NCBI GenBank assembly: GCA_031380785.1
Contig: JANMWU010000429.1
Coordinates: 1-40,257, forward strand
Source: Gemmatimonadaceae bacterium
GTDB taxonomy: Bacteria; Gemmatimonadota; Gemmatimonadetes; Gemmatimonadales; Gemmatimonadaceae
Direction of reading: 5' to 3'
DNA length: 40,257 bases
Part shown: positions 13,016 to 26,854 of the stretch, piece by piece
How positions within the stretch are numbered: position 1 is the stretch's first letter
Layout of the letters: each line of letters starts with the position of its first letter
Notes under the pieces: model-generated
Seen by the model: only the letters and a program-made list of their open reading frames with translations
The model's database searches: none
What the model was told of the DNA's origin: nothing
Position numbers and translations under genes: made by a program

Positions 13016-13108
13016 TCGACTTCCCGGTCGTGGAGCGGCTAGCCGGGTGCACTCACTGGCGGGCCGCTCAACGATCGACGGTGCTTCATTTCTCGCGTTC
13101 ACTGCATC

Positions 13109-14266
13109 GTGACTTCGCCACGCATTTATCTGTCCGTTCCACACATGGGCGGTGAAGAACTTGCTCTTGTCGAGGAAGCCTTTACCACGAACTGGTTGTC
13201 GACGGTTGGCCCCCATCTCGATGCATTCGAGCACGAGATGTCCGAAGCGCTTGGCGGGTCGCACAGTGCGCTGGCGGTCGGCAGCGGCACCGCCGCACTG
13301 CACCTGATCCTTCGGGCGATCGGCGTTGGACCCGGCGATGCCGTTGCGGTTTCGACGCTGACCTTCGCCGGTTCTGTATTTCCGATTTTGTATCAAGGTG
13401 CGACGCCAGTGCTGATCGACAGCGAGTCGGCGTCCGGCAACCTCGATCCAGCACTGGTTCGAGAATACCTCGCGACCGCGGCGGCGAAGAACGCGCTACC
13501 GAAGGCACTCGTCGCAGTGCATCTCTACGGCCAGCACGCCGACATCGACACGATCGCAACAGCATGCGCCGAGTATGGTGTTTCGCTCATAGAAGACTCT
13601 GCGGAGTCGCTCGGCGCCACCTACCGCGGTCGCGAAACGGGGACGACGGCGCCATACGCATTGCTCAGCTTCAACGGGAATAAGATCATCACGACGAGCG
13701 GTGGCGGAATGGTCCTCGCCAAAGACCCGGCGCAGATACAGCGCATGCGGAAATGGGCAAATCAGTCCCGTGAGCCAGCCGTCGAGTACCTCCATACGGA
13801 GCATGGCTACAACTATCGAATGAGTAACGTGCTGGCCGGCATGGGCCGCGGTCAGTTGCGCGTGCTTCGCGATCGCGTTGTGCAGCGTCGCGCGGTGTTC
13901 GGTCGCTATGTCGCGGCGCTGCACGACGTGCCGGGATTGAGTTTTCAGGCAGAAGCGCCGTGGGGCACGCACACACGCTGGCTGACGGTGTGCTATCTGG
14001 ATGCGTTGAGCGGTGCACAAATGAGCCCGCTCCAGCTTATCAACGCGCTCGCGGCGCAAAACATCGAAGCCCGACCTGTCTGGCGTCCAATGCATACGCA
14101 GCCCCTGTTTGCGGGAGTGCAGATGATCGGCGGTGCGGTTGCGGAGCGCCTGTATCGCACCGGAGTATGCCTGCCTTCGTCGTCAAGCTTGGCGAGAGCT
14201 GACCAGCAGCGCGTGATCGCGATCATCCAGGAGACGATGGCGGAATCGGCGACTCGTAGCCAGTGA
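13109..14266 (+). CDS. DegT/DnrJ/EryC1/StrS-family PLP-dependent nucleotide-sugar aminotransferase (PglE/WbpE-like)
   Basis: 385 aa. N-terminus IYLSVPHMGGEELALVEEAFTTNWLSTVGPHLDAFEHEM. Active-site lysine context SFNGNKIITTSGGGMV. Also EHGYNYRMSNVLAGMGRGQL. GTG start. Confidence 0.9.
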   Translation: MTSPRIYLSVPHMGGEELALVEEAFTTNWLSTVGPHLDAFEHEMSEALGGSHSALAVGSGTAALHLILRAIGVGPGDAVAVSTLTFAGSVFPILYQGATPVLIDSESASGNLDPALVREYLATAAAKNALPKALVAVHLYGQHADIDTIATACAEYGVSLIEDSAESLGATYRGRETGTTAPYALLSFNGNKIITTSGGGMVLAKDPAQIQRMRKWANQSREPAVEYLHTEHGYNYRMSNVLAGMGRGQLRVLRDRVVQRRAVFGRYVAALHDVPGLSFQAEAPWGTHTRWLTVCYLDALSGAQMSPLQLINALAAQNIEARPVWRPMHTQPLFAGVQMIGGAVAERLYRTGVCLPSSSSLARADQQRVIAIIQETMAESATRSQ

Positions 14267-14855
14267 ACTCGGGCATCGTCGCATCGCCGGCCGCGGCAAT
14301 TCCGCCGCGCTGGATGACCGTACGAAACGTCCGGAGAAGAATTTGAATATCAAGCAACATCGAGCAGTGCTCGACGTAGCGGACGTCGAGATCGAACTTG
14401 TCGGACCAATCGATTGCATTCCGCCCGGAGATCTGCGCCAGACCGGTCAGTCCGGGCGGGGTTTCATGTCGGCGGCGATGATGCGCCGAATAGCGGACGA
14501 GGTATTGCGGCAGCAGCGGACGCGGGCCGACGAGGCTCATGTCGCCGCGCAGGACGTTGAAAAGCTCCGGCAGTTCGTCGAGAGACGAGCTTCGCAGTCG
14601 ACGACCGGACACAGTCAGTCGCTCGGTGTCGGGCAGAAGAGCGCCATCGACGTCACGTGCGTCGGTCATTGTTCGGAACTTGTACATCATGAACTCGCGC
14701 TCCCGCAGGCCGGTACGCCGCTGGCGGAAGAGCACCGGCGTGCCGATGCGCGCTCGCACTGACCACGCAATCAAGCATAGAGCCGGAAGCCAAATGGGCG
14801 AGACGATGAGGACGAGCAGGAGATCGAAGAGGCGTTTTCCACGGTAGCCGGACAT
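14223..14855 (-). CDS. Small monotopic phosphoglycosyl transferase (PglC/WecP-like initiating sugar transferase)
   Basis: 210 aa. Motifs: KRLFDLLLVLIVSPIWLPALCLIAW (re-entrant helix with Ser-Pro), YKFRTM, SLDELPELFNVLRGDMSLVGPRPLLP and GLTGLAQISGRN. Its 3' end overlaps the convergent aminotransferase gene by 44 nt. Confidence 0.9.
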   Translation of the reverse strand: MSGYRGKRLFDLLLVLIVSPIWLPALCLIAWSVRARIGTPVLFRQRRTGLREREFMMYKFRTMTDARDVDGALLPDTERLTVSGRRLRSSSLDELPELFNVLRGDMSLVGPRPLLPQYLVRYSAHHRRRHETPPGLTGLAQISGRNAIDWSDKFDLDVRYVEHCSMLLDIQILLRTFRTVIQRGGIAAAGDATMPEFTGYESPIPPSSPG

Positions 14856-14980
14856 GTCAGAAAAATAGCACTAGGGTTGCTGCTGCGACGCCAGCGACTG
14901 GTTCACCGTGCGACGCAGGACTAACCTTCATATCTCATTGCGTCCCCGCTCTGACGCGACTCCACCTTTTGACGTCCTCA
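14856..14980. promoter_or_regulatory. Divergent intergenic region between the PglC-like gene (-) and the tailoring operon (+); presumed promoters
   Basis: About 113-125 nt of non-coding sequence between divergent starts. No motif assigned. Confidence 0.3.
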
Positions 14981-15982
14981 ATGGCGCCAGACGCCTTCGT
15001 GCGCATCGACGATCGATGGTCGCTTGGCGGCCTCACGGTCATCTCGCTCGAGAATCGGTTCCTTCGGGTTGTGATCTGCCCTGCCCTCGGCGCTCGGGTG
15101 CTGCACTTCGAGCATCGCAGCGGCGGCACTGACCTGCTGTGGCACAATCCGCGCATCGAGCACCGTGCCGTACCGATCGGCAGCTGCTACGACGATAATT
15201 TTGCCGGTGGATGGGATGAGCTGTTTCCCAACGATCTGGCCGGCACAGTGGGCGGCGAAACGTATCCGGATCACGGTGAGCTCTGGTGTCAGCCTTGGCA
15301 CCATAAAATCGAATCCGTCAGTAGCGAATCCGTGACCGTTCGCCTGTGGCGTACTGGAGCCGTGACGACGACTACCGTCGAAAAGTGGGTCACACTTGTC
15401 GCCACCGAATCACAGTTGCGCTTCCGGCACCGCATCTCGAATCACGGCCCGCGCGCGCTCGATTTTCTGTGGAAGCTGCATCCAGCTTTGGCGATCGAGG
15501 CGGGCGATCGGATTGATGTGCCGGCAACGATGGCGGAGGCTGTGGATCCGTCATTCGGCCGCGTGGCAAACATAACGCCATTCCACTGGCCCGTCGGTGC
15601 GGATGAGCGCGGGGCTGCGATCGACTTGAGTGTCGTGCCGGCGCTCGACGGTACGCGCGATTTCGTCTACACACACGCACTGACAGATGGCTGGTGTGCA
15701 CTCCGCCGTACGCGACTCGACATCGGATTCGGTCTCGCATTCCCGACCAGTGTCTTCAACTCCGTCTGGCTCTTCATGACCTTCGGTGGATGGCGCGGAC
15801 TTTCGACCGTCGTGCTCGAGCCGTGCACGACAGTTCCAAAGGATCTCGCGGCGGCGATCCGCGCCGGAACGTCGAGGCATCTCGAACCCGGGCAGCATCT
15901 CGCGTGCGACGTGCGTGCGATTCTGTTTGAAGGCGCTGAATCGTTGACTGGATTCGGCGATAGCGGGCAACCACTGCGATGA
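14981..15982 (+). CDS. Galactose-mutarotase-like (aldose 1-epimerase fold) protein
   Basis: All-beta style sequence with features seen in mutarotase-like or DUF4432-type proteins (NFAGGWDELFPN, YPDHGELW, FLWKLHPAL). This is only a fold-level call. ATG at 14981 is used; the ORF track opens at TTG 14969. Confidence 0.55.
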   Translation: MAPDAFVRIDDRWSLGGLTVISLENRFLRVVICPALGARVLHFEHRSGGTDLLWHNPRIEHRAVPIGSCYDDNFAGGWDELFPNDLAGTVGGETYPDHGELWCQPWHHKIESVSSESVTVRLWRTGAVTTTTVEKWVTLVATESQLRFRHRISNHGPRALDFLWKLHPALAIEAGDRIDVPATMAEAVDPSFGRVANITPFHWPVGADERGAAIDLSVVPALDGTRDFVYTHALTDGWCALRRTRLDIGFGLAFPTSVFNSVWLFMTFGGWRGLSTVVLEPCTTVPKDLAAAIRAGTSRHLEPGQHLACDVRAILFEGAESLTGFGDSGQPLR

Positions 15983-16956
15983 CGGCGCCAATCTCTGCGA
16001 GCGTGCCGACGGCTGGCATCTCCACTGTGCTCACATCGCTGCTGCCCACGCTCGCATGTCCCGCGTGCCGAGCCGCGCTGGATCGCACGGGAGATGCCCT
16101 CACCTGCACGTCGTGTCTGCGCTCGTACGCGGTCAGCGGCGATGTCCCGATTCTTCTCGATGAGGAGTCGAAGTCGGAGATCGCGAGGTTCCGGCACGAC
16201 GCGGAGAACGTGCGACTCCGCCAACAACTGGCATCCGGAGGGCTCGCACGTCTGGTCGACGTCATTCGACCTCCGCACCCGTTTGCCTTTACGCGGCGTC
16301 GCGTCAATCACGCCAAACGGATCGCCTTCTCGCGTCTCGCCTCAACCAGTGCGGATGTGACGGTGCCGCGGTTTCTCGACATCGGCAGTGGCATACTCGG
16401 TGGCCTCAATCATTCTGGGCTGTCGCAGCATGTCCGCTCGCATTTGTTGCCCCTCGAAATTGCGCCGACCAGCGGCGTCGGCGTGGTGGGCGACGCGCAC
16501 AAACTTCCCTTTCGCGACGATAGCCTCGATGGCGCGTTGATTCAGGGCGTCCTCGAACATGTGCGCGACCCGATTCAGGTCGTAGAAGAGATTTTCCGCG
16601 CACTCAAGCCCGGCGCGCCGGTCTTTGCCGAAGTGCCGTTCATTCAGCACTATCATCTCGATCCGGTGGACTATCGACGCTGGACACACTACGGATTCGA
16701 GAAGCTCTTCGCCGGCTTCACGTGCGACGATGTCGGCGTCGCCGCAGGTCCTGCATCCGCACTGACTGACATGCTCACGGAGTTTCCTGCGCTGCTGTTT
16801 CGTTCTCCTGCGCTGTACTGGGGCGCGAAGCTGGTCAGCGGGTGGCTGTTCGCTCCGATCCAACTGCTCGACGCAGTCTGGGGTTCCGCACCGCGCGCGC
16901 ATGTGATGGCTGGGGCCGTCTATTTCTTGGGGCGCAAACCGGTGCGGCAGCCATGA
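15979..16956 (+). CDS. Class I SAM-dependent methyltransferase with N-terminal Trm112-like zinc ribbon
   Basis: The zinc ribbon is CPACRAALDRTGDALTCTSCLRSYAVSGDVPILL (CxxC...CxxC). Motif I is FLDIGSGILGG, followed by GDAHKLPFRDDSLDGALIQGVLEHVRDP (Methyltransf_11-like). ATGA overlap with the upstream stop. Confidence 0.8.
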   Translation: MTAPISASVPTAGISTVLTSLLPTLACPACRAALDRTGDALTCTSCLRSYAVSGDVPILLDEESKSEIARFRHDAENVRLRQQLASGGLARLVDVIRPPHPFAFTRRRVNHAKRIAFSRLASTSADVTVPRFLDIGSGILGGLNHSGLSQHVRSHLLPLEIAPTSGVGVVGDAHKLPFRDDSLDGALIQGVLEHVRDPIQVVEEIFRALKPGAPVFAEVPFIQHYHLDPVDYRRWTHYGFEKLFAGFTCDDVGVAAGPASALTDMLTEFPALLFRSPALYWGAKLVSGWLFAPIQLLDAVWGSAPRAHVMAGAVYFLGRKPVRQP

Positions 16957-17735
16957 GAGGCCTACGTGGGCGCATCGGCCTGGTCACTGGTGCCGCACAG
17001 GGGATTGGACGCGGCATCGCGTTGCGATTTGCCGAGGAAGGCATGTCCGTGGCGCTGGCTGACAAGAATGGAGAAGCGGTCCGGGCGGCCGCCGCAGAGA
17101 TCGCGGAGGAAACCGGCGCGACCACGTTGGCGCTCTCCGTCGACGTCAGTGACGAACACGCCGTACCACGCGCCATCGCGGCGTGCTGCACCGCCTTCGG
17201 CGGGATTGACGCGCTCGTGAACAACGCCGGCGTGGATGAGACCAGCGAACCGCAACTGATGACGCGCGCGGCGTGGAATCGGGTGCACGACGTCGATCTG
17301 TGGGGACCGATGCTCATCACGCGGGAAGCGCTCGATGCGCTGTCCGTGCGTGGCGGATCAATCGTGAACATCGCGTCTACGCACGCGTTCATCACACACG
17401 CGGGCCGTGCCGCATATGCGTCCGCGAAGGCCGGCGTGCTCGGTCTGACGCGGGCACTCGCGCTCGATCTGGGACCGCGTGGAGTACGCGTCAACGCCGT
17501 GCTGCCGGGCTATGTGCAGACTCCGATCTGGAAGCTGTGGCTCGACGACGCCTCGGACCCCGACGCACTCCTGCACAGGATCGCATCGTACCATCCCGTG
17601 CAGCGTGTCGGCACGCCCGCCGATGTCGCCGGACTCGTCGCCTTTCTCTGCAGCGATGACGCGAGTTTCATCACCGGGGGATCGTATCTCGTCGATGGCG
17701 GCTACACCGTGCAGGCGCACACGCCAGAGCCGTGA
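16953..17735 (+). CDS. Classical short-chain dehydrogenase/reductase (FabG-like)
   Basis: MRGLRGRIGLVTGAAQGIGRGIA (TGxxxGIG), NNAG, and the catalytic YASAK motif. The start was chosen at the ATG that overlaps the upstream TGA (ATGA); the longer ORF-track start at 16842 was rejected. Confidence 0.9.
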   Translation: MRGLRGRIGLVTGAAQGIGRGIALRFAEEGMSVALADKNGEAVRAAAAEIAEETGATTLALSVDVSDEHAVPRAIAACCTAFGGIDALVNNAGVDETSEPQLMTRAAWNRVHDVDLWGPMLITREALDALSVRGGSIVNIASTHAFITHAGRAAYASAKAGVLGLTRALALDLGPRGVRVNAVLPGYVQTPIWKLWLDDASDPDALLHRIASYHPVQRVGTPADVAGLVAFLCSDDASFITGGSYLVDGGYTVQAHTPEP

Positions 17736-18715
17736 CAGAGTCATCCGGCATCTGGCGCGGTCAAAGGGCACTCGTGACCGGCGGCCTTGGTTTCATCGGA
17801 AACGCCGTGGTGCGTCAGCTCGTGGCGGCCGGCGCGCATGTTCGCGTACTGGATGCGCTTCTGCCGCAAGGCGGTGGCAGCCCGCGCCACCTGCGAGGCG
17901 TCTCGTCCGAAATCGATGTGATCATCGACGATACCCGATCGCGGGATGCCGTGGATCGCGCCGTCCGCGAGTGCGATGTCGTGTTTCACCTTGCGGGCCA
18001 TGCAGGTTTTTCGGCGTTCGCTCCCGATTGGTACTCGGAAATCGACTCGGCGCTCCTCGGCACGCTGAATGTGCTCGAAGCCGTACGCGTACACTCGCCG
18101 CGCGCGCGGGTGGTGTTTGGCAGCGCACTCGGCGTGTACGGTCGACCTGAGCACGCCCACGTCGCTGAAACAGCGCGAACGGAGCCACTAACGCTTTTCG
18201 GTGTGCACAAGCTGGCCGGAGAGAAATACTGCAGCGTGTATCACACGCAACATGGCGTACGCACCGTGTCAGCGCGGATTGCGTGGCTGTTCGGCCCGCG
18301 GCAACGCCTCAGCGGAGCGGCCAACGGCACCATTGCGAACGCCCTTGACGCCGCAATTCACGGTGAGGTCATTCGCCTGCCCGACGATGGGGCGCCGTTA
18401 CTCGACGTGCTGCACGTCGACGACGCGGCGTCTGCGCTTCTCGCGATTGCGCAGGCCCCGTCGCACATTGATGGTGGGTTGATTAACGTCGGGCGCGGCG
18501 AGGGCGTGACCTTGCGATCGATCGCCGAGCAACTGGTTGCCGCCGTCGGCAGTGGTGAAATCCGGGAATTGCCCGCCGCCGGTGGACAGGGTGCCAGCGT
18601 GGTGACTGACATCACGCGTCTCCGCCGCATTGAACCGACGTGGCAGCCGCTTGCGCTCGACATCGCGCTCGCGCAGACGGTGCGCTGGTATCGCGGCGAC
18701 GACGATGCTGCATAG
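17732..18715 (+). CDS. Extended SDR, NAD-dependent epimerase/dehydratase family, with non-canonical FxxxK motif
   Basis: ALVTGGLGFIGNAV (GxxGxxG) and GSALGVYG are present. The position of the usual PYGxSK motif reads LFGVHKLAGE (TTC codon at 18197-18199). GTGA overlap with the upstream stop. Confidence 0.85.
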   Translation: MTESSGIWRGQRALVTGGLGFIGNAVVRQLVAAGAHVRVLDALLPQGGGSPRHLRGVSSEIDVIIDDTRSRDAVDRAVRECDVVFHLAGHAGFSAFAPDWYSEIDSALLGTLNVLEAVRVHSPRARVVFGSALGVYGRPEHAHVAETARTEPLTLFGVHKLAGEKYCSVYHTQHGVRTVSARIAWLFGPRQRLSGAANGTIANALDAAIHGEVIRLPDDGAPLLDVLHVDDAASALLAIAQAPSHIDGGLINVGRGEGVTLRSIAEQLVAAVGSGEIRELPAAGGQGASVVTDITRLRRIEPTWQPLALDIALAQTVRWYRGDDDAA

Positions 18716-19316
18716 CCTGCAACGGAGTGCATTTCTGCGACCGCGTGAGCGCCTCTACGAAATGCTCGCGCTCCAGCAGCTCGCGCTCGGCGTGCACGAT
18801 GGTGCGGCGGCGGGCTCCGAACGCATCGCCGACCAGCGCACCATGGCGGGCCACCTTCAGGAGTTGCTGCAGCAAGGCCTGGTGGTGGCCACGAACACCG
18901 TGGATCGCGCGGAGTACGCGCTCACTGACGCAGGCAAGCGTCGTCTGCGCATGCTGACAATCGACCTCGCGCGCGAACTCGAATCGTTGCAGGATGCGAC
19001 GCGCGCGATGATTCGTGCGGCTCTGGTGCCGCTCGCGCTCGACGGCGTGCGACGTGTGGTGTTCTATCCGTTCGGCGAGACTGCAGAAATGGCGTACACC
19101 GTCGTGACAGGTCTTGGCCTCGACGTGGTGGGGATCGTCGACGACTCGCCGCGAAAGTGGGGCGTGCGCTTTCACGGCCTGCAGGTGCTGCCGGCGACGA
19201 CGCTTCCATCATTGGCGCCGGATGCGGTCCTGGTGACGTCGGCCGTGTTTCAGGAAGCGATACTGACGAAGTTGCGAGCGTTGCCGCTCGAGGGCGTTCG
19301 CATTCATATTCTGTGA
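18705..19316 (+). CDS. Putative regulator: winged-helix DNA-binding domain + Rossmann-like (CoA_binding_3 / Rex-C-like) domain
   Basis: 203 aa from the ATG at 18705. The N-terminal half (LYEMLALQQLA...IADQRTMAGHLQELLQQGLVVATNTVDRAEYALTDAGKRRL) looks like a MarR/PadR-type wHTH. The C-terminal half (RRVVFYPFGETAEMAYTVVTGLGLDVVGIVDDSPRKWGVRFHGLQVLPATTLPSLAPDAVLVTS) follows the IiGaG..a......g...vGflDDdp.k.G..i.g.pVlg pattern seen in PglF/WbaP/Rex Rossmann modules, but it lacks GxGxxG. Confidence 0.55.
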   Translation: MLHSLQRSAFLRPRERLYEMLALQQLALGVHDGAAAGSERIADQRTMAGHLQELLQQGLVVATNTVDRAEYALTDAGKRRLRMLTIDLARELESLQDATRAMIRAALVPLALDGVRRVVFYPFGETAEMAYTVVTGLGLDVVGIVDDSPRKWGVRFHGLQVLPATTLPSLAPDAVLVTSAVFQEAILTKLRALPLEGVRIHIL

Positions 19317-21496
19317 CGCGCATCGATGGCGGTCTGCTCGCGCCACACGCCGCGCTCGACGGCGACGCGCTGCGCATCACCTGGACGAGTGAGACGGGGG
19401 AACGCGTCGGGCACGCCTGCATCGCGGTCGCCGTTACGCAGCGCCATGGAGCGCGGACGACGCGAGCCAGCTGGACACGGTCGAGCGATGCCGGCGGCGC
19501 GCGCACCAGCTGCGACGCCTGCGATGTGACGGTACGCTGGCAGCCGGTACGCGGCGGCTATCTGCTGCTCGCGACGCTGTCGAATGTCGGCACGAAAACC
19601 GTCGAACTCGAAGAATTCGAATTGGAGCTGTCCGAACTGTCCTCGTTCTGGTCGGCCGATGCGCACGTCAGCGGAACGCACATCGCGTATTGTGGCGCAC
19701 ATTCGCGCTCATCATCGAGTCGCAGCTACGTCGTCCCGCTCGACACCGACGCGTCACTCGACTCGTGGTGGGTCGGCGCCGTGAGTGGCGCACTCGGGCC
19801 GGGCATCGTGTGCGGCGGTGCTGCACCGGTCAGATTCGTGACCTGTGTTCGCGTCCGTCGCGACAGCTTGTGCGCCTGCAGCCCGCTGGAAGGGTGGACG
19901 CTGAAGGTGGGCGAAATTGTGACGCTCGACCCGGTGTGGATCGGTGCCACAGGCGATGCACCACATGTTGCGCTCGAGCGCTTTGCCGACGTACTCGGCA
20001 CCGCGCAGCATGCGCGTCAGGGGGCATCGCCATCGGGCTGGGGAAGCTGGGGCCACTGGCTCGAGCGTATCGACGTGGGACTGATGCGCGAAATGGTGCA
20101 TGCGATCGATGGCAGTGATGCGCTGCGCAGCGTGATAGACGTCGTGCAGATCGACGATGGTTGGTCCGAACTCCTCGAGTCGCGGCGCGTGTCTGCCAGT
20201 TGGCGACCGAACGGTCGCTTCCCATCCGGCCTCGCGCCGCTGGCCGCCGAAATCGCGCAGACCGGACGACGATGCGGGCTTTGGCTCTTGCCGTTCACGC
20301 TGAACGCCGGGTCACCTATCGTCGAGACCCATCCGGAATGGCTGGTGCAAGATGCCGACGGGGTGCCGATGCGCGTCGGTGGGAGCGATGCGTACTGCCT
20401 CGATCCAACGCATCCAGGCGGCGCGGCATGGATCACCGCACTGCTCGAGCGGATCCGCGACTGGGGTGTCGACTACGTCAAGCTGGATTTCCTCCGTGCG
20501 TTGCTGGCTCCTGATCCCGCCGATCCGCACGACAACTTTCGGGTCACCCGTCGATACCACGCTGCGACAACGCGCCTGGAAGCATATCGGATCGGGCTAT
20601 CGGTCATCCGTCGAGCGCTCGGCAACGACACGACGATCGTCGCCTGCTCGGCTCCCGCCGGTGCAGGAGTGGGAATCGTGGATTGCCATCGCGTGGGACC
20701 TGACATCGAGCGGCAATGGACTGGCAAGCTCGCCGGTGTGCTGGACGCGGCGCGCGCGGTCGCGACGAATTGGTTCTGGCATGGGCGCACTTGGGTCAAT
20801 GATCCGGACTATCTGCTGGCGTGTGAATCCGAACCGCTGACGAGATTCTGGGCGTCGATCGTTGCCCTGTCCGGTGGCTCTGTCATACTGAGCGCCGACC
20901 TGAGCACGCTGGCGCCGTGGGCCGAAACGATGCTCGCGTTTGTGATGCCGCCGATCGGCCGCTCGGCGCGACCGCTCGACCTGTTTTCGAGTGGCCCGGA
21001 CCCGCGGCGCTGGGCGCTGCCGTTCGAGCGCGGAGCAGAGCGATGGACGATGCTTGGCCTGTTCAACTGGGGTGAACGGCCAACCACCGAGCGTGTGTCG
21101 ACATGTGAACTCGGATTTGCACACGCCGTGCATGTGTGGGATGCATGGCGACTTCGGCACACGATCGCGTTGCACACCCTCGCTGTGCCTCTGGAACCGG
21201 AATCGGCGGCGCTCCTCCGCCTGACACCCGTGACCGCAATGCCGACCGTCGTCGGGACCGATGTACACTGGGCGCAGGGATGGCACGAGTTCGTACTCAT
21301 TCGGTTCGAAGAGGATTCCGGCAAACTGATTCTTGAGGTGGCTGGCGACTGTCCGCGCGACGGACGCGCGTGGGTCTGGGTACCGCCCGACTGGTCACTG
21401 GTGCATGAAACTTCGTCGACACTGGACGGACTCGTGAGCATCCCACTGGCCCCGGGCCGCACGACCGTAGCTATCTTTCGCCGAGTTTTGTTGTGA
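19313..21496 (+). CDS. Glycoside hydrolase clan GH-D (GH36/GH27-like alpha-galactosidase/melibiase fold), no signal peptide
   Basis: Motifs seen: VVQIDDGW, GVDYVKLDFL (KxD nucleophile context), CHRVGPDI (acid/base context, cf. RxSxDI) and TWVNDPDYL (cf. NDPDML). The start was chosen at GTG 19313, which overlaps the upstream TGA; the ORF-track start at 19157 lies inside the previous gene. Confidence 0.8.
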   Translation: MTRIDGGLLAPHAALDGDALRITWTSETGERVGHACIAVAVTQRHGARTTRASWTRSSDAGGARTSCDACDVTVRWQPVRGGYLLLATLSNVGTKTVELEEFELELSELSSFWSADAHVSGTHIAYCGAHSRSSSSRSYVVPLDTDASLDSWWVGAVSGALGPGIVCGGAAPVRFVTCVRVRRDSLCACSPLEGWTLKVGEIVTLDPVWIGATGDAPHVALERFADVLGTAQHARQGASPSGWGSWGHWLERIDVGLMREMVHAIDGSDALRSVIDVVQIDDGWSELLESRRVSASWRPNGRFPSGLAPLAAEIAQTGRRCGLWLLPFTLNAGSPIVETHPEWLVQDADGVPMRVGGSDAYCLDPTHPGGAAWITALLERIRDWGVDYVKLDFLRALLAPDPADPHDNFRVTRRYHAATTRLEAYRIGLSVIRRALGNDTTIVACSAPAGAGVGIVDCHRVGPDIERQWTGKLAGVLDAARAVATNWFWHGRTWVNDPDYLLACESEPLTRFWASIVALSGGSVILSADLSTLAPWAETMLAFVMPPIGRSARPLDLFSSGPDPRRWALPFERGAERWTMLGLFNWGERPTTERVSTCELGFAHAVHVWDAWRLRHTIALHTLAVPLEPESAALLRLTPVTAMPTVVGTDVHWAQGWHEFVLIRFEEDSGKLILEVAGDCPRDGRAWVWVPPDWSLVHETSSTLDGLVSIPLAPGRTTVAIFRRVLL

Positions 21497-21638
21497 ACTC
21501 GCGCGTCCTGCCGCACAAATGTGGCCGAGCGGAGGCTGGTGACAGCGGGAGTCGGGGCGGCAGCGTCTTCAGTGTGGCGCGAACAATCCGAGGGCCGCAC
21601 CGCGATTCGCCCGCTTCACTTCCGGATCACTCAGCTTC

Positions 21639-22940
21639 ATGACCGTTCGCGGCAAGCGTTTACTCATTCTCGGTGGCAACCCCGAGACCGCCGCGTTGGT
21701 GCGCCACGCCAGCGCAATGGGCGTGGTCACGCTTGTCGTCGATCCGAACCCCGATGCGCCCGCGAAGCGTGACGCCGCAGAGAGTTACGATGTGGACGGG
21801 CGCGACGTGCCCGCGCTCATCGACCTTGCAAGGCGCGTCGGCGCGGACGGTGTGCTTGTGGGCGTGGCCGACATTCTCGTCGGTGCCTACAAGGAAGTGT
21901 GCGAGGCACTCGGATTCCCATGTTACGCCAACGCGCGCACGGTGGAAGCATTCACGACGAAGGACGGATTCCAATCCGCATGCAGAACCTTCGGCATCGC
22001 GTGCATTCCCTCTTTCACGCTCAGCGCGTCACTCTCGAAAGCGGACGTGGAAGCGCTCCAGTTCCCCATCATGCTTAAACCCGTCGACAACGGCGGCGGT
22101 GTCGGCATGGTTGTCTGCGAGAACAGTCAAGAGTTGCGTTCAGGCGTCGATTTTGCCCTGCGTCACTCCAAGCGTGGCGCGTTCCTCGCGGAACGATACA
22201 TGACGTGCGATGACGTGTTCACGTACTACACCTTCAAGGACGGAGCAGTGTATCTGTCCGCGATGGCCGATCGGATTACGACGCGGGTTCAGGGAAAGAC
22301 GAGCCCAGTTTGCCTCGCGGCGTCCTATCCGTCCCACCATCTCGAAGCGTACCTCGCGACTGTTCATCCCAGAATGTGCCGAATGTTCGAAGGCCTCGGC
22401 GTGCGCGACGGAGTTCTCAACGTGCAGTTCTTCGTTAACGGGGACAATTTTTTTGCGTACGACCCAGGCTTCCGACTTCAGGGGGAGGCGCCACACATCG
22501 TGATCAACGCCGTCAACGGGTTTGATCATCGCAGCATGCTCGTGGAGTTTGCGCTGACGGGACAAATGGGTGACGTAGACCTCACCGTGGCGAATGATCC
22601 GCGACTACGAGGGAACCGTGCGTGCACCGTGTGGTTTCTGCTGAAGGCTGGAACGGTCGCGCGGATCGACGGGCTCGATGCGGTACGCCGCGACCCATCT
22701 GTGGCATTCGTCCTGCAACGCTTCGGCGAGGGGGACGTCGTCACACCCGCGATGGTAGGGACCGAACGTCAGGTGCTCGCCCGAGTATACGTGATCGCTG
22801 CGTCAGATCTGGCGCTGGCGGACACGGTCGCGGGAATCCAACGCGTGGTACAGGCATTCGACGCCGACGGCCAGGACATGCTTGTGGACCGGGTCGACAC
22901 AGCGCAGCTCATGACGATCTCTGACGGTGACGCAAAGTGA
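21639..22940 (+). CDS. ATP-grasp family carboxylate-amine/thiol ligase
   Basis: 433 aa. It has a pre-ATP-grasp Rossmann start (KRLLILGGNPETAALVRHASAMGVVTLVVDPNP), then KDGFQSACRTFGIACIPS, FPIMLKPVDNGGGVGMVVC, AFLAERYM and VLNVQFFVNGDNFFAYDPGFRLQG, as expected for an ATP-grasp core. Confidence 0.8.
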   Translation: MTVRGKRLLILGGNPETAALVRHASAMGVVTLVVDPNPDAPAKRDAAESYDVDGRDVPALIDLARRVGADGVLVGVADILVGAYKEVCEALGFPCYANARTVEAFTTKDGFQSACRTFGIACIPSFTLSASLSKADVEALQFPIMLKPVDNGGGVGMVVCENSQELRSGVDFALRHSKRGAFLAERYMTCDDVFTYYTFKDGAVYLSAMADRITTRVQGKTSPVCLAASYPSHHLEAYLATVHPRMCRMFEGLGVRDGVLNVQFFVNGDNFFAYDPGFRLQGEAPHIVINAVNGFDHRSMLVEFALTGQMGDVDLTVANDPRLRGNRACTVWFLLKAGTVARIDGLDAVRRDPSVAFVLQRFGEGDVVTPAMVGTERQVLARVYVIAASDLALADTVAGIQRVVQAFDADGQDMLVDRVDTAQLMTISDGDAK

Positions 22941-23701
22941 CGGCGGAAGGCGCCCTGACGCTCGCAGGACGCTGCGCACTGGTCACCGGAGGCACGCGGA
23001 ATCTCGGTCGCGCGATTGTGGAGCGGTTCGCGGCATGCGGTGTGCGCGTTGCCGTACTCGGGCGCCAAGCCGATAACGCGACAAGCGTCGTTGCCGAGAT
23101 CCGTGAGCGAGGGGGCGAGGCGATCGGATTGAAGTGCGATGTCACCGATCGCGAGTCTGTTGCCGACGCAGTCGGGCGCACGGTTGCCGAGTTCGGGAGC
23201 CTCGATATCGTCGTCAACAGCGCCGGCGTGCTCGACATGATCCCCGTGCGCGATATGACGGTCGAACACTGGGACCACGTCCTGGCCGTGAATCTCCGGG
23301 GCACCTTCTCGGTGATTCAGGAGTCGCTGCCGTACCTCGCGGCGAGCCGCGCCGGTCGTGTCATCAACCTGTCATCGAACTCGGGTCGTATGGGCGGCTT
23401 CGAGAACGGAATGGCGTACAGCGCATCGAAGGGCGGCGTTATCGCTCTCACCTATGGTCTTGCGCGACAACTCGCGCCGCAGCGGATCACAGTCAACTGC
23501 ATCGCACCGGGGACCATCGATTCAGACATGCTGCGTGCCCGTGACGAGCCGACACGCGTGCGACTGCTGGCGCGATTCCCACTGGGCCGCTTCGGCACCG
23601 CAGCCGAAGTAGCGGCTGCGGCCTGCTACTTCGCGAGTGAAGAAGCCGCGTTCACGACGGGCGCGGTGCTCGACGTGAACGGCGGGCTCTTCATGGGATA
23701 G
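22937..23701 (+). CDS. Classical SDR oxidoreductase (FabG-like)
   Basis: ALVTGGTRNLGRAI, NSAG, the catalytic YSASKGG motif and PGTIDSDM. GTGA overlap with the upstream stop. Confidence 0.9.
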   Translation: MTAEGALTLAGRCALVTGGTRNLGRAIVERFAACGVRVAVLGRQADNATSVVAEIRERGGEAIGLKCDVTDRESVADAVGRTVAEFGSLDIVVNSAGVLDMIPVRDMTVEHWDHVLAVNLRGTFSVIQESLPYLAASRAGRVINLSSNSGRMGGFENGMAYSASKGGVIALTYGLARQLAPQRITVNCIAPGTIDSDMLRARDEPTRVRLLARFPLGRFGTAAEVAAAACYFASEEAAFTTGAVLDVNGGLFMG

Positions 23702-23726
23702 CGTGAACTCCACTCAAGGATTCTTT

Positions 23727-24488
23727 ATGGCCAACATGTTCGATCTGACCGGGAAGACGGCCCTCGTGGTCGGCGGAGCCGGCGATCTTGGTGCACCGAT
23801 GGCAGAAGCGCTGGCCGAGGCCGGCGCGAAGGTTGTAGTCATTGACGTTGATTCGCGTGCGATGGCGATCGCCGACAGCATGGCCGCGCGGGGATTGTCC
23901 GTGAGCGCGATACTGGCAGATATCGGGGACCGATCCGCCATCCGGAGTTCATACGCGGAGGCGCTGACTCGCCTGGGTGGGAGGCTCGACATCCTTCTCA
24001 ATACGGCCGGCATCCAGCGGCGTCACCCGAGCGAAGTGTTCCCCGAGTCAGACTGGGATGCCGTCATTGCGATCAACCTCGAGGCAACCTTCTTCTACTG
24101 CCAACTCGCCGGCAATACGATGATCGCGCAGGGCGGTGGGAAGATCATCAACATCGCCTCGATGCAGAGCTTCTTCGGCGGACTCACCATCCCGGCGTAT
24201 GCGGCGGCTAAGGGCGGTGTCGCACAACTGACGAAGGCACTCTCGAATGACTGGGCGGCGAAAGGCATCAACGTGAACGCGATCGCCCCGGGGTATATGG
24301 ACACGCAACTCAATACGGCGCTCATCAACGATCCGGTCCGCCACGCGGAAGTCATGGCGCGAATTCCCAAGAAACGCTGGGGTACCGGTGCCGACATGAA
24401 GGGAATCGTCGTGTTTCTCGCCTCAATGGCCAGCGATTACATTTCAGGTTCTGTTATCCCCGTCGATGGTGGCTACCTGGGGCGCTAG
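23727..24488 (+). CDS. Classical SDR oxidoreductase, KduD-like (2-deoxy-D-gluconate 3-dehydrogenase-like)
   Basis: FDLTGKTALVVGGAGDLG, the YAAAKGGV motif, and IPKKRWGTGADMKGIVVFLASMASDYISGSVIPVDGGYLGR, which resembles KduD C-termini. ATG 23727 is preceded by AAGGA 7 nt upstream; the ORF track opens at GTG 23703. Confidence 0.85.
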   Translation: MANMFDLTGKTALVVGGAGDLGAPMAEALAEAGAKVVVIDVDSRAMAIADSMAARGLSVSAILADIGDRSAIRSSYAEALTRLGGRLDILLNTAGIQRRHPSEVFPESDWDAVIAINLEATFFYCQLAGNTMIAQGGGKIINIASMQSFFGGLTIPAYAAAKGGVAQLTKALSNDWAAKGINVNAIAPGYMDTQLNTALINDPVRHAEVMARIPKKRWGTGADMKGIVVFLASMASDYISGSVIPVDGGYLGR

Positions 24489-24548
24489 CGCCCTCCTAAC
24501 CTTGTCCCCGGCTCAGCGCCAACGTCGGTGCTGGAAGGAAGCACGATT

Positions 24549-25409
24549 ATGCTCGCAGAGTCGCCTGCCGGTGTCTCGATCGCGGTGCGCGCCTGCCCTT
24601 TGTGTGGCGGGTTCGATTCCAGTCAGGAACAGTTCCGCCTGACTGGCTGGCTTCAGCGCTGCCAGGGATGCGACATGGTCTTCAGCGAGTCCGCAGCAAT
24701 CCCCGGTACGTTATACGAGGAGGCGTTCTCCGACACCGACCACTTCTACCACCGGTACGCGGACGAGGGCGAGAAGCTGCTTACCGGCGCCGGCACGCAT
24801 ATCGCATGGGGCTGGCGCCAGTTCTTCCGCACCGTCCCCATTCCGCACGGTGGTGGACGCATCCTCGATATCGGCTGCAGTACGGGCGTCTTTCTTTCAG
24901 AAGCGAAGCGCCGGGGTTGGAGCAACGTTGAAGGGATTGAGATCTCACCCTCCGCCGCTGCGTTCGCACGGCGGTTGCTGCAGTGTGACGTGCACGAGAT
25001 GCCACTCGAATCGGCCAATTTGCCAAGTGAGCGCTTTGACACTGTCACCGTGTACGAAGTCATTGAGCACCTGCTGGATCCTATCGGATTCGTGCGCGAA
25101 ATCACGCGTGTGCTCCGGCGATCCGGAACGGTGACGTTTACCACGCCGAACTGGGAAAGCGTTTGGGAGCGTAAGTCGCGTGACGTTCACCGTGCACCGC
25201 CGTACCACCTCAACTACTTCACACCCCGCACGATCACGAAGCTCCTGACCGGTGCCGGCTTCACGGATGTGCGCACGGCGCGCAAGCCGTTTGCCTGGAA
25301 GGAGGAAATCGGGCCGAGCGCTCCACTCCACCTCCCGCTCTCACTCCTTCGAAGTGCGCTCCTCGGCCAGCGAGGAAACCGACTTTTCGTCACCGCGCGG
25401 CGGGACTGA
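24549..25409 (+). CDS. Class I SAM-dependent methyltransferase with N-terminal CxxC...CxxC zinc ribbon
   Basis: Zinc ribbon CPLCGGFDS...RCQGCDMVFSE. Motif I is RILDIGCSTGVFL, followed by FDTVTVYEVIEHLLDP (Methyltransf_23-like). ATG 24549 is preceded by GGAAGGAAG; the ORF track opens at GTG 24528. Confidence 0.8.
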   Translation: MLAESPAGVSIAVRACPLCGGFDSSQEQFRLTGWLQRCQGCDMVFSESAAIPGTLYEEAFSDTDHFYHRYADEGEKLLTGAGTHIAWGWRQFFRTVPIPHGGGRILDIGCSTGVFLSEAKRRGWSNVEGIEISPSAAAFARRLLQCDVHEMPLESANLPSERFDTVTVYEVIEHLLDPIGFVREITRVLRRSGTVTFTTPNWESVWERKSRDVHRAPPYHLNYFTPRTITKLLTGAGFTDVRTARKPFAWKEEIGPSAPLHLPLSLLRSALLGQRGNRLFVTARRD

Positions 25410-25478
25410 ACGATCTGCTATGACGGGGCGCCGCGCCGTCTCGAATATGGCTCACGCCCCGCACCGGCCAAATTCCTT

Positions 25479-26720
25479 CTATCTCGAACTTTTCAGCGAG
25501 GCGTTCAACTCGTCCATCAAGTCCGCCATGAGAATTTCTGCGTTCCGACGATCGAAATGCTTGCGAACGTAGGTGAGTGCGCGTAAGCCCATGGCGTTCG
25601 CCTCTTGTGGATTGTCGCGAAGCCAGCGAACTCCATCCGCTAGCGCGCGACTGTCCTGCGGCGGCACGAAGAGCCCACCGCGCGACTTGTCGATCACATC
25701 GCGGATGACTCCATCGATCGCAATTATCGTCGGCCTTCCGCAGGCCATGTAGTCAAATACCTTGTTCGGATACGTCGTCCGGAACAGCGGGATGTCGAGC
25801 AGCGTCGCGACGCCGGCATCTGCGCCAGCCAGAAGCTCGGGTATGCGCTGCTTGGGTACAGCGCCCAAAAACTGCACGTTCTCGAGTTGACGAGCACGTG
25901 CCGACGACTCGAGGTCCGCTCGCTGTTGACCGTCACCGACCAGGACGAAGAGAATTTCTGACTCGTCGCGCATGAGTTCCGCAGCGTCGAGCATCAGGCT
26001 CAGACCATTCGCCATGCCAATCGATCCAGCATACATGACGACGAACTTTCCCTCCCACCGGTTTTCGCTGCGCACACGCTCTCGCGCCTCGGGTATCGGC
26101 CGGAATTGTTCGAGATCGACACCATTCGGAATGAGTCGGATACGGCTGGGTGGCACGCCCAGGGCCTGGAGCGGTTCGATGAAGCCAGGCGAGTTGATGA
26201 CCACGTAACGCGAACGCGAATACAGGAAACGCTCGAGACGTCGGACGGCCCAGATGACCCACCGGTTCTTGACAATGCCGAGCTGGAACGCGACCTCGGA
26301 CCAAAGGTCGCGTACCTCGTACACCATCGGCGCACGATGCCAAAGCGAGAGTACATACCCTGTGATGCCGAGGAAAAATGGGGGCGTACACGGGGCAATC
26401 ACGTCGGGACGCTGTTCACGGATTCCGACGACGATAGACGTCAGCATGAAGGACAGCAACGTGAGCACACGGTGCCCGAAACTCTTGTGGTACCCTTCGT
26501 ATGTCCACGCGCGCACGACCTCGTAGCCATCGAGCCTTTCACGCACTGACAGCCGCCCCTTGAACTCCGGCGGTACGGTGGCTGTCAGGTAGTTGAATGT
26601 CCCAGCCAGGCAGGTGACAGCATGCCGGCGTTCCGATAAACGACGCGCAAAATCGTTGCCGCGGCCGCTGCCGCCGTCCTTCAGCGACTGGAACGACTGA
26701 TGCAGAAATAGAATTCGCAT
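25479..26720 (-). CDS. GT4-family glycosyltransferase, WbuB-like
   Basis: 413 aa. MRILFLHQSF..GGSGRGNDFARRL (GT4 N-domain), FVVMYAGSIGMANGL, ILFVLVGDG, VQFLGAVP and YPNKVFDYMACGRPTII, as typical of WbuB-type GT4 enzymes. Confidence 0.85.
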   Translation of the reverse strand: MRILFLHQSFQSLKDGGSGRGNDFARRLSERRHAVTCLAGTFNYLTATVPPEFKGRLSVRERLDGYEVVRAWTYEGYHKSFGHRVLTLLSFMLTSIVVGIREQRPDVIAPCTPPFFLGITGYVLSLWHRAPMVYEVRDLWSEVAFQLGIVKNRWVIWAVRRLERFLYSRSRYVVINSPGFIEPLQALGVPPSRIRLIPNGVDLEQFRPIPEARERVRSENRWEGKFVVMYAGSIGMANGLSLMLDAAELMRDESEILFVLVGDGQQRADLESSARARQLENVQFLGAVPKQRIPELLAGADAGVATLLDIPLFRTTYPNKVFDYMACGRPTIIAIDGVIRDVIDKSRGGLFVPPQDSRALADGVRWLRDNPQEANAMGLRALTYVRKHFDRRNAEILMADLMDELNASLKSSR

Positions 26721-26854
26721 TGATCTTGTTGATGTTATGTCTCAATCTCTGCCACACCGGATGGCATCAGTCGGGATTCGCTGGGCCATTGCAATGGCTC
26801 GACTACCCGTATCGCCATTCCCAGTGGAGCAGTGTCGATGCACGTACAGGACTT

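Follow-up and report, generated by a model that had tools for sequence, protein, structure and literature searches.

What does a ten-gene block without a single glycosyltransferase do in the middle of a bacterial polysaccharide locus? The question is raised by a 40,257-nucleotide stretch of DNA from a Gemmatimonadaceae bacterium (GenBank assembly GCA_031380785.1, contig JANMWU010000429.1, positions 1 to 40,257; the whole stretch is hereafter the window), in which ten plus-strand open reading frames, g1 to g10, lie in frame between positions 14969 and 25409 (Table 1) and are flanked by a Wzx/Wzy-type locus. The original prediction proposed either a cytoplasmic pathway making an unusual methylated and aminoacylated or oxidised sugar substituent for the flanking Wzx/Wzy system, or a small-molecule or glycoside pathway of independent function that had come to lie in the locus. 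The former fits best, in outline only. Our fuller answer, held tentatively and at somewhat less than even confidence, is that the block is the Gemmatimonadaceae version of a widespread nucleotide-sugar tailoring cassette, in which the ATP-grasp ligase g7 would N-acylate a 4-amino sugar (the first part) with an acid that would itself be derived from a sugar (the second part).

The g7 product carries the Pfam domains CPSase_L_D2, Dala_Dala_lig_C and LAL_C2 together with a pre-ATP-grasp domain, and its C-terminal domain is L-amino-acid-ligase-like. A profile of the family has one close match in the PDB, the uncharacterised structural-genomics ATP-grasp protein 4dim, which is matched over the full length (expectation value, E, 2.8e-34). 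A metagenome scan with g7 recovered 80 loci with homologues 47-57% identical, mostly on low-G+C marine and freshwater contigs, and neighbouring genes were counted in the 48 loci of at least 9 kb (g7 homologue at 47-55% identity). A small phosphoglycosyltransferase (PGT) is encoded in 36 of the 48 and a DegT aminotransferase, within 8 kb of the g7-like gene, in 28; a PglF-like dehydratase occurs in nine. Short-chain dehydrogenases/reductases (SDRs) resembling g9 (65-71% identity) and g8 (up to 63%) are found in 22 and 17 loci, respectively, the latter, at 60-63%, directly after the ATP-grasp gene in many. Just 5′ of the ATP-grasp gene stand a dehydrogenase, which is either an SDR (34/48) or a zinc-dependent alcohol dehydrogenase (Zn-ADH) fused to a family 2 glycosyltransferase (GT2; 8/48), and a lactonase-like hydrolase, either of the SGL lactonase family (33/48) or of the metallo-beta-lactamase (MBL) fold (11/48). 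A GT2 gene also belongs to this 5′ group in 39 of the 48 loci. The smallest version, in locus L053, consists of PGT, ATP-grasp and DegT genes, and several other loci have the order ATP-grasp-DegT-PglF. The ATP-grasp family is thereby tied, across phyla and in unrelated metagenomes, to DegT, small PGT, dehydrogenase and lactonase-like genes.

The g7 family comprises 421 representative clusters at E <= 1e-30, and domain fusions were looked for in the best 150 representatives. Several were found: an N-terminal MBL-fold domain (P0229, P0240 and P0289), a C-terminal SDR (P0196), an ornithine cyclodeaminase (P0336), GNAT/FemAB domains and a second ATP-grasp domain. No ATP-grasp-PGT fusion occurs among these 150.

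Such a fusion is known from Neisseria. One account (PMC11130364) describes PglB2 as an ATP-grasp/PGT fusion making glyceramido-acetamido-trideoxyhexose (GATDH), PglB as an acetyltransferase/PGT making diNAcBac (N,N′-diacetylbacillosamine), and the two as mutually exclusive alleles. The Neisseria pgl core locus (PglB2, the aminotransferase PglC and the dehydratase PglD) resembles the window in that an ATP-grasp enzyme stands near a small PGT domain, a C4 aminotransferase and a 4,6-dehydratase. In contrast to Neisseria, g7 is separate from the PGT, and two SDRs, two methyltransferases, a mutarotase and a trio containing a glycoside hydrolase of family 36 (GH36) are added, all of them without a described counterpart in Neisseria. 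A second parallel comes from Bacillus cereus ATCC 14579, where the UDP-Yelosamine (UDP, uridine diphosphate) pathway consists of the aminotransferase Pat and the ATP-grasp ligase Pyl, Pyl joins 2-oxoglutarate to the 4-amino group of UDP-4-amino-6-deoxy-N-acetylhexosamine, and a small PGT gene follows immediately (PMC11626204; PMC8987622). Pyl draws its acid from central metabolism and so requires no route to supply it, whereas the block has six or more extra genes that look suited to making or tailoring an acid. With PglB2 and Pyl, g7 shares the ATP-grasp fold and the association with a C4 aminotransferase, a 4,6-dehydratase and a small PGT.

On this basis we consider the first part of the explanation probable. 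The PglF-like dehydratase at the end of the window and the DegT aminotransferase would make UDP-4-amino-4,6-dideoxy-N-acetylhexosamine; g7 would ligate a hydroxy- or keto-acid to the 4-amino group; tailoring of the acid or the acyl group would fall to two SDRs (g8 and g9) and two methyltransferases (g2 and g10); and the small PGT would start the Wzx/Wzy repeat unit by transferring the completed sugar to the lipid carrier. The DegT gene, although outside the coordinates of the block as first drawn, is functionally linked to it. The statement that no named pathway could be assigned can now be revised in part, as the proposed ATP-grasp N-acylation maps onto PglB2 and Pyl; the GH36 trio (g4, g5 and g6) is the part left unexplained. 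A literature search on ATP-grasp enzymes and capsular amides found nothing.

Related Gemmatimonadaceae loci add to the case for the first part. The full ten-gene set is seen again in two more lineages (L008 and L009), where protein identities are 68-80% for g1-g3, 53-57% for g4-g6 and 80-92% for g7-g10. In L007/L012, L013, L011 and a fourth contig, g7-g10 are swapped for an SDR, a PglD-like N-acyltransferase, a CoA-transferase, a second SDR and an AP_endonuc_2 protein. This swap partner offers an alternative means of acid activation and amide formation, which supports g7-dependent N-acylation, and it parallels the replacement of ATP-grasp by acetyltransferase in Neisseria. In a minimal locus, L010, SDR, PGT and methyltransferase genes come after DegT-g4-g5-g6. 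Along the block, nucleotide identity to L009 rises abruptly from ~0.52-0.63 up to ~0.75-0.87 at ~21300, near the end of g6; since this step (~21300-21640, the end of g6 and the 142-nt g6/g7 spacer) coincides with the module-swap point, it is likely a recombination junction. The ten genes therefore do not travel as one unit, as the description of a single operon might have implied: the block is a mosaic, with at least three or four sub-modules assorting independently of one another and being swapped or lost. Its placement within a polysaccharide locus does hold, and in every case the block adjoins DegT and small PGT genes.

Just 3′ of the DegT-g4-g5-g6 locus of L010 lie AbiEii-type toxin genes and an Rv0078B-like gene (L010:11200-11670 and 14394-15169), so defence or toxin-antitoxin genes border the polysaccharide region there.

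The second part of the explanation concerns the origin of the acid. In the widespread form of the cassette, a dehydrogenase is paired with a lactonase-like hydrolase, and MBL domains occur fused to ATP-grasp; both suggest that an aldose is turned into a lactone and then into an aldonic acid, which ends up in amide linkage. The marine cassette L057 brings the comparison closest to the window: it has a g2-like gene (39%) adjoining the PGT, g8- and g9-like genes, and a g10-like gene (36%) after the ATP-grasp gene, so that the window differs from it essentially by g1 and g4-g6, where L057 has SGL and GT2 genes. A profile search of all 80 g7-like loci found no GH36 and no g1 homologue. The block had been singled out as oddly glycosyltransferase-free; it does lack such a gene, and the lack is informative rather than odd, because GT2 holds the position of the GH36 trio in the widespread form.

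At the centre of the trio is g6, whose closest solved structure is the GH36 enzyme TmGalA of Thermotoga maritima (1zy9, E 1.2e-31 over residues 192-549; also 5m0x). In the alignment, TmGalA residues D220, K325, D327, R383 and D387 correspond to g6 D281, K390, D392, R460 and D464, all five of which are invariant in 17 family members. In TmGalA, D327 is the nucleophile and D387 the acid/base (PMC6089974). Both the KxD nucleophile and the RxxxD acid/base motifs are present in g6, whose catalytic machinery, judged from the alignment, is intact, every checked catalytic and sugar-binding residue being kept. The product has neither a signal peptide nor a transmembrane segment. Whereas TmGalA is a catabolic raffinose/melibiose hydrolase, g6 is ~170 residues longer and is found only in operons for polysaccharide biosynthesis, where its gene is translationally coupled to those of an atypical SDR (g4) and of a protein with winged helix-turn-helix (wHTH) and Rossmann-like domains (g5). 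Relatives at 56-64% identity come from Gemmatimonadaceae metagenome-assembled genomes (MAGs), and the clade (47-100% identity) is present in every Gemmatimonadaceae-type locus recovered, in each case within a polysaccharide locus adjoining DegT and PGT genes. More distant relatives from Anaerolineae/Chloroflexota (26-33% identity) share no neighbours with the block, one inspected locus holding unrelated genes, and so offer no functional lead. A literature search found no account of GH36 enzymes in exopolysaccharide clusters or of Gemmatimonadota exopolysaccharide loci.

The first gene, g1, encodes a mutarotase-fold protein. Its model matches Bacillus subtilis GalM (3mwx) in Foldseek (E 4.6e-16, TM-score 0.67-0.70), its profile also matches mutarotase-related PDB entries, and H102, H171 and E284, a candidate His/His/Glu sugar-site set identified from the alignment alone, are invariant in 28 family members. 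More than 1200 homologues are spread across phyla. On a Paenibacillus contig (L050:7772-10960) a g1 homologue (45%) adjoins a canonical three-domain GH36 gene, in a cluster that also encodes an ABC transporter, a GntR regulator, an enolase-superfamily dehydratase, an SDR and a Zn-ADH. This cluster looks like an oxidative alpha-galactoside catabolic route, and a cluster of this type may be the evolutionary source of the g1/GH36 pairing. In L007 (6522-6662, equivalent to L012:6423-6563), g1 is reduced to its last 47 codons, directly 5′ of g2, with g2-g6 kept; the remnant reflects a recent deletion of the mutarotase gene. No g1 is present in L010 or L011. The third gene, g3, scores above the cut-off of the NCBIfam glucose 1-dehydrogenase subfamily (224.7 vs 215 bits), an assignment that is weak because many SDR models give similar scores.

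The two partners of g6 are less conventional. In g4, FGVHK stands where YxxxK is expected, and the position of the Tyr is Phe or His in all eight orthologues. The Ser/Thr position is Ala in four, Asp in two and Ser in two, and the Lys position is Gln in one, so the Ser/Thr-Tyr-Lys triad of catalytic extended SDR epimerases and dehydratases is lacking. The dinucleotide-binding motif GxxGxxG is intact (GGLGFIG in all orthologues), and a His one residue ahead of the Lys position is invariant in all eight. The closest PDB match of g4 is 6wj9 (E 9e-32), an S121A/Y146F double mutant whose wild type is 6wjb; g4 matches the variant better because Ala and Phe are natural to it at those two positions. 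The NAD-dependent epimerase/dehydratase family protein of these two entries is, we presume, the UDP-GlcNAc (UDP-N-acetylglucosamine) C4-epimerase PelX. It has the same extended-SDR fold and intact GxxGxxG as g4; unlike the wild type, g4 and all its orthologues are without the catalytic Tyr. A role of g4 as the 4,6-dehydratase of the pathway was set aside, since it has neither the Tyr nor a Thr-Asp-Glu-type motif and a separate PglF-like gene exists.

The model of g5 consists of a winged helix, a long helix and a small Rossmann-like domain. Its top Foldseek matches are Rex-family repressors (E 1e-4), with a global TM-score of only 0.35, followed by a chain of the C3-methyltransferase KijD1 (E 3.6e-4) and by 3nkl, a WbpM-type N-domain (TM-score 0.59). 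Rex repressors share with g5 a comparable size and the order winged helix, then Rossmann-like domain. Unlike them, g5 lacks GxGxxG, the corresponding loop reading YPFGETAE, and its Rossmann half fits KijD1 and 3nkl at least as well. Against Pfam at E <= 10 it gave no Rex-related match, only weak wHTH matches and one to Methyltransf_14, and a sequence search against the PDB gave no match. The family is small (26 clusters in 5.8 billion proteins). True g5 homologues occur in seven marine cassettes (hhalign probability 96.7%; hmmsearch E down to 4e-19), where their genes follow that of the MBL-fold hydrolase and directly precede that of the GT2-ADH fusion. This fusion, a 634-residue protein in L055 (6062-7966) and also found in L059, L061, L066, L067, L071 and L072, joins GT2 to a Zn-dependent dehydrogenase of the glucose/threonine-dehydrogenase-like type; we know of no described function for it.

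From these observations we propose, as a possibility that we regard as rather doubtful, that the N-acyl acid is derived from a sugar. The sugar would be freed from its activated form by GT2 in the widespread cassette and by GH36 here. As a retaining enzyme, g6 would, with its co-evolving partners g4 and g5, release a free alpha-sugar, and its most attractive substrate would be a nucleoside diphosphate (NDP)-alpha-sugar, in chemical terms an alpha-glycoside; the nucleotide-binding surfaces that GH36 itself does not have would come from g4 and g5. The mutarotase g1 would equilibrate the anomers, and the SDR g3 would oxidise C1 to give the lactone and then the aldonic acid. A mutarotase would be expected beside GH36 and not beside GT2, because an inverting GT2 would give the beta-anomer directly and a retaining GH36 the alpha-anomer; it would be helpful yet dispensable, because mutarotation is spontaneous. 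In its most specific form, which we consider unlikely, g4, g5 and g6 would form a complex acting as a nucleotide-sugar hydrolase, a non-homologous substitute for a GT2-type enzyme, and the sugar would be anomerised, oxidised to an aldonic-type acid, methylated and amide-linked by the ATP-grasp enzyme to a 4-amino-4,6-dideoxy-hexosamine. Biosynthetic hydrolysis of a nucleotide sugar to a free sugar for later enzymes is carried out by PseG and NeuC/LegG of the nonulosonic-acid pathways. The likeness to the proposed g6 role is one of working only: these enzymes have GT-B-type folds and their free sugar is condensed with phosphoenolpyruvate, whereas g6 has a GH36 TIM barrel and its sugar would be oxidised to an acid.

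Of all this, the gene content, the folds, the conserved catalytic residues, the module swaps and the linkage of the ATP-grasp family across phyla to DegT, PGT, dehydrogenase and lactonase-like genes are established, and the amide acceptor, the acid, the substrate of GH36 and what g4 and g5 do are inferred. Several points weigh against this two-part explanation. The likening of g7 to Pyl and PglB2 is by fold and gene neighbourhood, and all carrier organisms are uncultured MAGs. The block itself contains no lactonase. The mapping of g3 onto the cassette dehydrogenase is by analogy, since g3 is only ~21% identical to the marine-cassette SDR, and the GT2 of the widespread cassette could be an ordinary glycosyltransferase. 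We know of no GH36 that acts on NDP-sugars, and g4 shows no conservation of the Arg equivalent to the one that we take to bind the UDP phosphate in GalE-type epimerases. The mutarotase is dispensable, being deleted or absent in lineages that keep the GH36 trio (L007/L012, L010 and L011). When the profile of g5 was compared with that of the extension at the C-terminus of the marine GT2, the result was not significant (probability 0.2%, E 0.26), and the idea that this extension is a fused g5 is not relied on, as it was based only on borderline C2185-like_N Pfam matches. Finally, which g4-g6 alleles a locus has does not depend on whether it carries the ATP-grasp or the CoA-transferase module, and this fits a shared upstream role and, equally, an unrelated one.

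The strongest of the alternatives is one that we hold to be distinctly unlikely: the ATP-grasp enzyme would act as above, and the trio would be a control or editing unit and not a source of acid. Here transcription would be controlled by g5 as a Rex-like factor, g4 would be an SDR without catalytic activity that senses NAD(H) or a nucleotide sugar by an NmrA-like logic, and g6 would destroy or trim a precursor or lipid-linked intermediate, tuning flux or correcting errors. The wHTH-plus-Rossmann model of g5 with Rex repressors as its best structural matches agrees with this, as do the Tyr-less orthologues of g4 that have kept GxxGxxG, the much faster divergence of the trio than of its neighbours (53-57% vs 80-92%), its assortment apart from the acyl module, and the dispensability of g1. 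The absence from g5 of the Rex GxGxxG and of any Rex Pfam match, and its low global TM-score, speak to the contrary. Many invariant polar residues of g5 lie outside the winged helix, the gene is translationally coupled within an enzyme operon and adjoins the GT2-dehydrogenase fusion in marine cassettes, and the invariant His beside the SDR Lys position could rescue catalysis in g4.

Two further explanations appear improbable, to a similar degree. In the first, GH36 is a retaining transglycosidase that stands in for GT2 and adds a sugar to the acylated amino sugar or to the acyl chain. GT2 does occupy the equivalent position in 39 of the 48 ATP-grasp loci, the block has no other glycosyltransferase, and plant raffinose and stachyose synthases are GH36 transglycosidases. 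Such a reaction depends on an activated alpha-glycoside as cytoplasmic donor, of which there is no sign; it also leaves unexplained the mutarotase partner, the mutarotase-GH36 adjacency in a catabolic cluster, and the fusion of the marine GT2 to a dehydrogenase. In the second, the ATP-grasp enzyme amidates the carboxyl of a uronic acid with an amine or amino acid, a reaction for which Campylobacter Cj1438 is the type. The L-amino-acid-ligase-like C-terminal domain of g7 would suit this, as would three other products of the locus that are typical of aminouronic-acid chemistry: an Epimerase_2 protein, a GFO/IDH/MocA oxidoreductase fusion and an asparagine-synthase-like amidotransferase. The cross-phylum neighbours of g7, however, are small PGT, DegT and PglF genes, including the minimal PGT-ATP-grasp-DegT form, with no uronic-acid genes, and the PglD-like N-acyltransferase of the swap partner is of an enzyme type that acts on amino sugars. 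The last explanation, an independent cytoplasmic glycoside-catabolic or small-molecule pathway made up of the block or of its g1/g3/g6/g9 part, is disfavoured and very improbable: the mutarotase, GH36, SDRs and KduD-like enzyme do resemble an oxidative sugar-catabolic set as in Paenibacillus L050, and another g1 homologue adjoins a sugar ABC transporter, but the block has no transporter, catabolic regulator, dehydratase, aldolase or kinase, its composition equals that of the flanks, its GH36 clade is found only within polysaccharide loci beside DegT and PGT in all Gemmatimonadaceae-type loci recovered, and the ~30%-identical Anaerolineae relatives have no neighbours in common with it.

The layout on which the analysis rests is as originally described, with all ten genes and their overlaps in place. 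ATGA stop/start overlaps join g1 to g2 (15979-15982) and g2 to g3 (16953-16956), GTGA overlaps join g3 to g4 (17732-17735), g5 to g6 (19313-19316) and g7 to g8 (22937-22940), and g4 and g5 share the 11 nt ATGCTGCATAG at 18705-18715. Besides the g6/g7 spacer, the remaining gaps are 1 nt (g8/g9) and 39 nt (g9/g10). In identical public contigs the gene calls start g1 at 14981, g9 at 23727 and g10 at 24549, all at ATG, so that the last two gaps become 25 and 60 nt; these alternative starts leave the overall layout unchanged. Part of the public calls put the start of g4 at 17774 and that of g5 at 18762. With the former, g4 would begin at the Gly-rich loop (residue 15, VTGGLGF), losing W8 and G10, which are conserved across all orthologues, and residues 1-14 of g5 include seven invariant positions; because these conserved N-terminal residues lie before the alternative starts, the overlapping starts are better supported. 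Identical overlaps are found again in orthologous loci at only 54-80% protein identity, and their recurrence in such diverged loci is therefore more than chance. The G+C content of the window is uniform at ~63%, and the base composition of the block is that of its flanks. A scan of 13000-27000 for promoters and terminators gave counts at the level of shuffled sequence, and so no information on transcript boundaries.

The predicted folds were likewise borne out: a mutarotase, two zinc-ribbon methyltransferases, three classical SDRs, an extended SDR with a broken catalytic motif, a wHTH/Rossmann protein, a GH36 enzyme and an ATP-grasp ligase. As claimed, a Pfam scan of the block gave no match to a glycosyltransferase, acyltransferase, nucleotidyltransferase or transporter, and none of the ten proteins has a transmembrane-like hydrophobic segment above threshold, which agrees with a sugar-to-acid branch. 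Among the tailoring genes, g9 falls below the KduD equivalog cut-offs (272.3 vs 338.85 bits for TIGR01832; 266 vs 369 for NF005390) and scores 206 bits against the gluconate 5-dehydrogenase model; by these scores it is a relative of KduD and not a KduD equivalog, and its likeness to sugar-acid dehydrogenases also agrees with the proposed sugar-to-acid branch. A homologue of g10 at 58% identity is present in L011.

Table 1. Positions in the window of the ten genes of the block and of other genes of the locus discussed in the text (SAM, S-adenosylmethionine; AF2, AlphaFold2; pLDDT, predicted local distance difference test).
Gene	Position	Strand	Assignment	Basis
g1	14969-15982	+	Galactose-mutarotase-fold protein, DUF5107/DUF4432 family	AF2 pLDDT 94.9, Foldseek
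g2	15979-16956	+	Trm112p-like zinc ribbon (Cys pairs) + class I SAM methyltransferase	Pfam Methyltransf_11 E 2.4e-11, Trm112p E 7.6e-6
g3	16953-17735	+	Classical SDR, candidate aldose 1-dehydrogenase	Pfam adh_short_C2 E 2.6e-67
g4	17732-18715	+	Extended SDR (NDP-sugar epimerase fold)	Pfam Epimerase E 8e-39
g5	18705-19316	+	Winged helix + long helix + small Rossmann-like domain	AF2 pLDDT 85, Foldseek
g6	19313-21496	+	Cytoplasmic GH36-family enzyme	Pfam Melibiase 46.8 vs 27 bits
g7	21639-22940	+	ATP-grasp carboxylate-amine ligase, candidate N-acyl ligase for 4-amino sugar	Pfam
g8	22937-23701	+	FabG-like classical SDR	Pfam, NCBIfam
g9	23703-24488	+	KduD / gluconate-5-dehydrogenase-like SDR	NCBIfam
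g10	24528-25409	+	Cys4 zinc ribbon + SAM methyltransferase	Pfam Methyltransf_23 E 2.4e-24
DegT	13109-14266	+	DegT/LegC/PglE-like sugar C4-aminotransferase	Pfam DegT_DnrJ_EryC1 E 2e-86
Small PGT	14223-14855	-	Small monotopic PGT, 210 aa, PglC-like in size	Pfam Bac_transf E 1e-57
PglF-like	39282-40256	+	PglF/WbpM-like UDP-N-acetylhexosamine 4,6-dehydratase, 5′ part, runs off window end	tblastn
Large PGT	4230-6002	-	590 aa, hexapeptide-repeat region + C-terminal PGT catalytic domain	Pfam Bac_transf
Large PGT	7885-9441	-	PGT	Pfam Bac_transf
Wzi-like	9640-11298	-	Wzi-like outer-membrane protein	
Wzi-like	11324-13015	+	Wzi-like outer-membrane protein	
Fusion	29786-31984	-	732 aa, Zn-dependent alcohol-dehydrogenase-type domain + GFO/IDH/MocA oxidoreductase	

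The flanks of the block provide export and assembly genes (an OPX exporter, a PCP protein, two Wzi-like proteins, Wzz, Wzx and a probable Wzy), three PGT-family genes and two glycosyltransferases of family 4, and sugar modifiers, namely a heparinase II/III-like protein, the Epimerase_2 protein, the Zn-ADH/GFO fusion and the asparagine-synthase-like amidotransferase. The DegT protein scores 324 bits against the NCBIfam LegC-family model and 220 bits against PseC, both under cut-off. The small PGT has a single N-terminal hydrophobic segment, and its gene converges on that of DegT such that their 3′ ends overlap by 44 nt (14223-14266), an arrangement also seen in L007 and L009. The PglF-like reading frame was recognised by tblastn, in which it aligned at 27% identity with a PglF-like protein (residues 5-329). 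A longer contig from the same organism shows, at the corresponding place, a gene for a 650-residue protein with CoA_binding_3 and Polysacc_synt_2 domains.

Other features of the flanks were recorded in passing. The two large PGT genes and the small one are all on the minus strand, and the presence of three in one locus suggests that the region uses two or more initiating sugars, or makes two or more glycans. The 590-residue PGT has a hexapeptide-repeat segment (left-handed beta-helix acyltransferase-like) at about residues 250-320 ahead of the PGT catalytic domain; it recalls the bifunctional acetyltransferase/PGT PglB of Neisseria with the domain order reversed, the PGT domain of PglB being N-terminal. 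The two Wzi-like genes are divergent, 25 nt apart, and their products are ~26-29% identical to each other; the pair is kept in all related Gemmatimonadaceae loci. The dehydrogenase-GFO/IDH/MocA fusion is conserved at 87% in L008 and L009.

N-acyl groups on 4-amino-6-deoxy sugars are major determinants of the antigenicity of bacterial surface glycans, and to our knowledge the making and attachment of unusual N-acyl acids have been worked out for only a few cases. The chemistry of the block is best filed as a known kind, ATP-grasp N-acylation of a 4-amino-6-deoxy-hexosamine for a small PGT. What is new is the widespread dehydrogenase/lactonase-like/GT2 extension of that cassette and, in Gemmatimonadaceae, the replacement of part of it by an intact GH36 enzyme, a Tyr-less SDR and a Rex-like protein. 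The comparison defines a searchable, previously unannotated cassette, consisting of ATP-grasp, dehydrogenase, lactonase-like hydrolase and GT2 genes beside PglC/PglE/PglF-type genes, that ranges over marine, freshwater and soil bacteria. If the GH36 trio is a regulator-plus-editing unit, it would represent a novel type of regulation built into a glycan operon. If it is a nucleotide-sugar hydrolase, it would add a new activity to GH36 and give a function to the Tyr-less SDR and to the 26-cluster g5 family, and the block would provide a new route to N-acyl groups on bacterial glycans, with a substituent that is itself undescribed.

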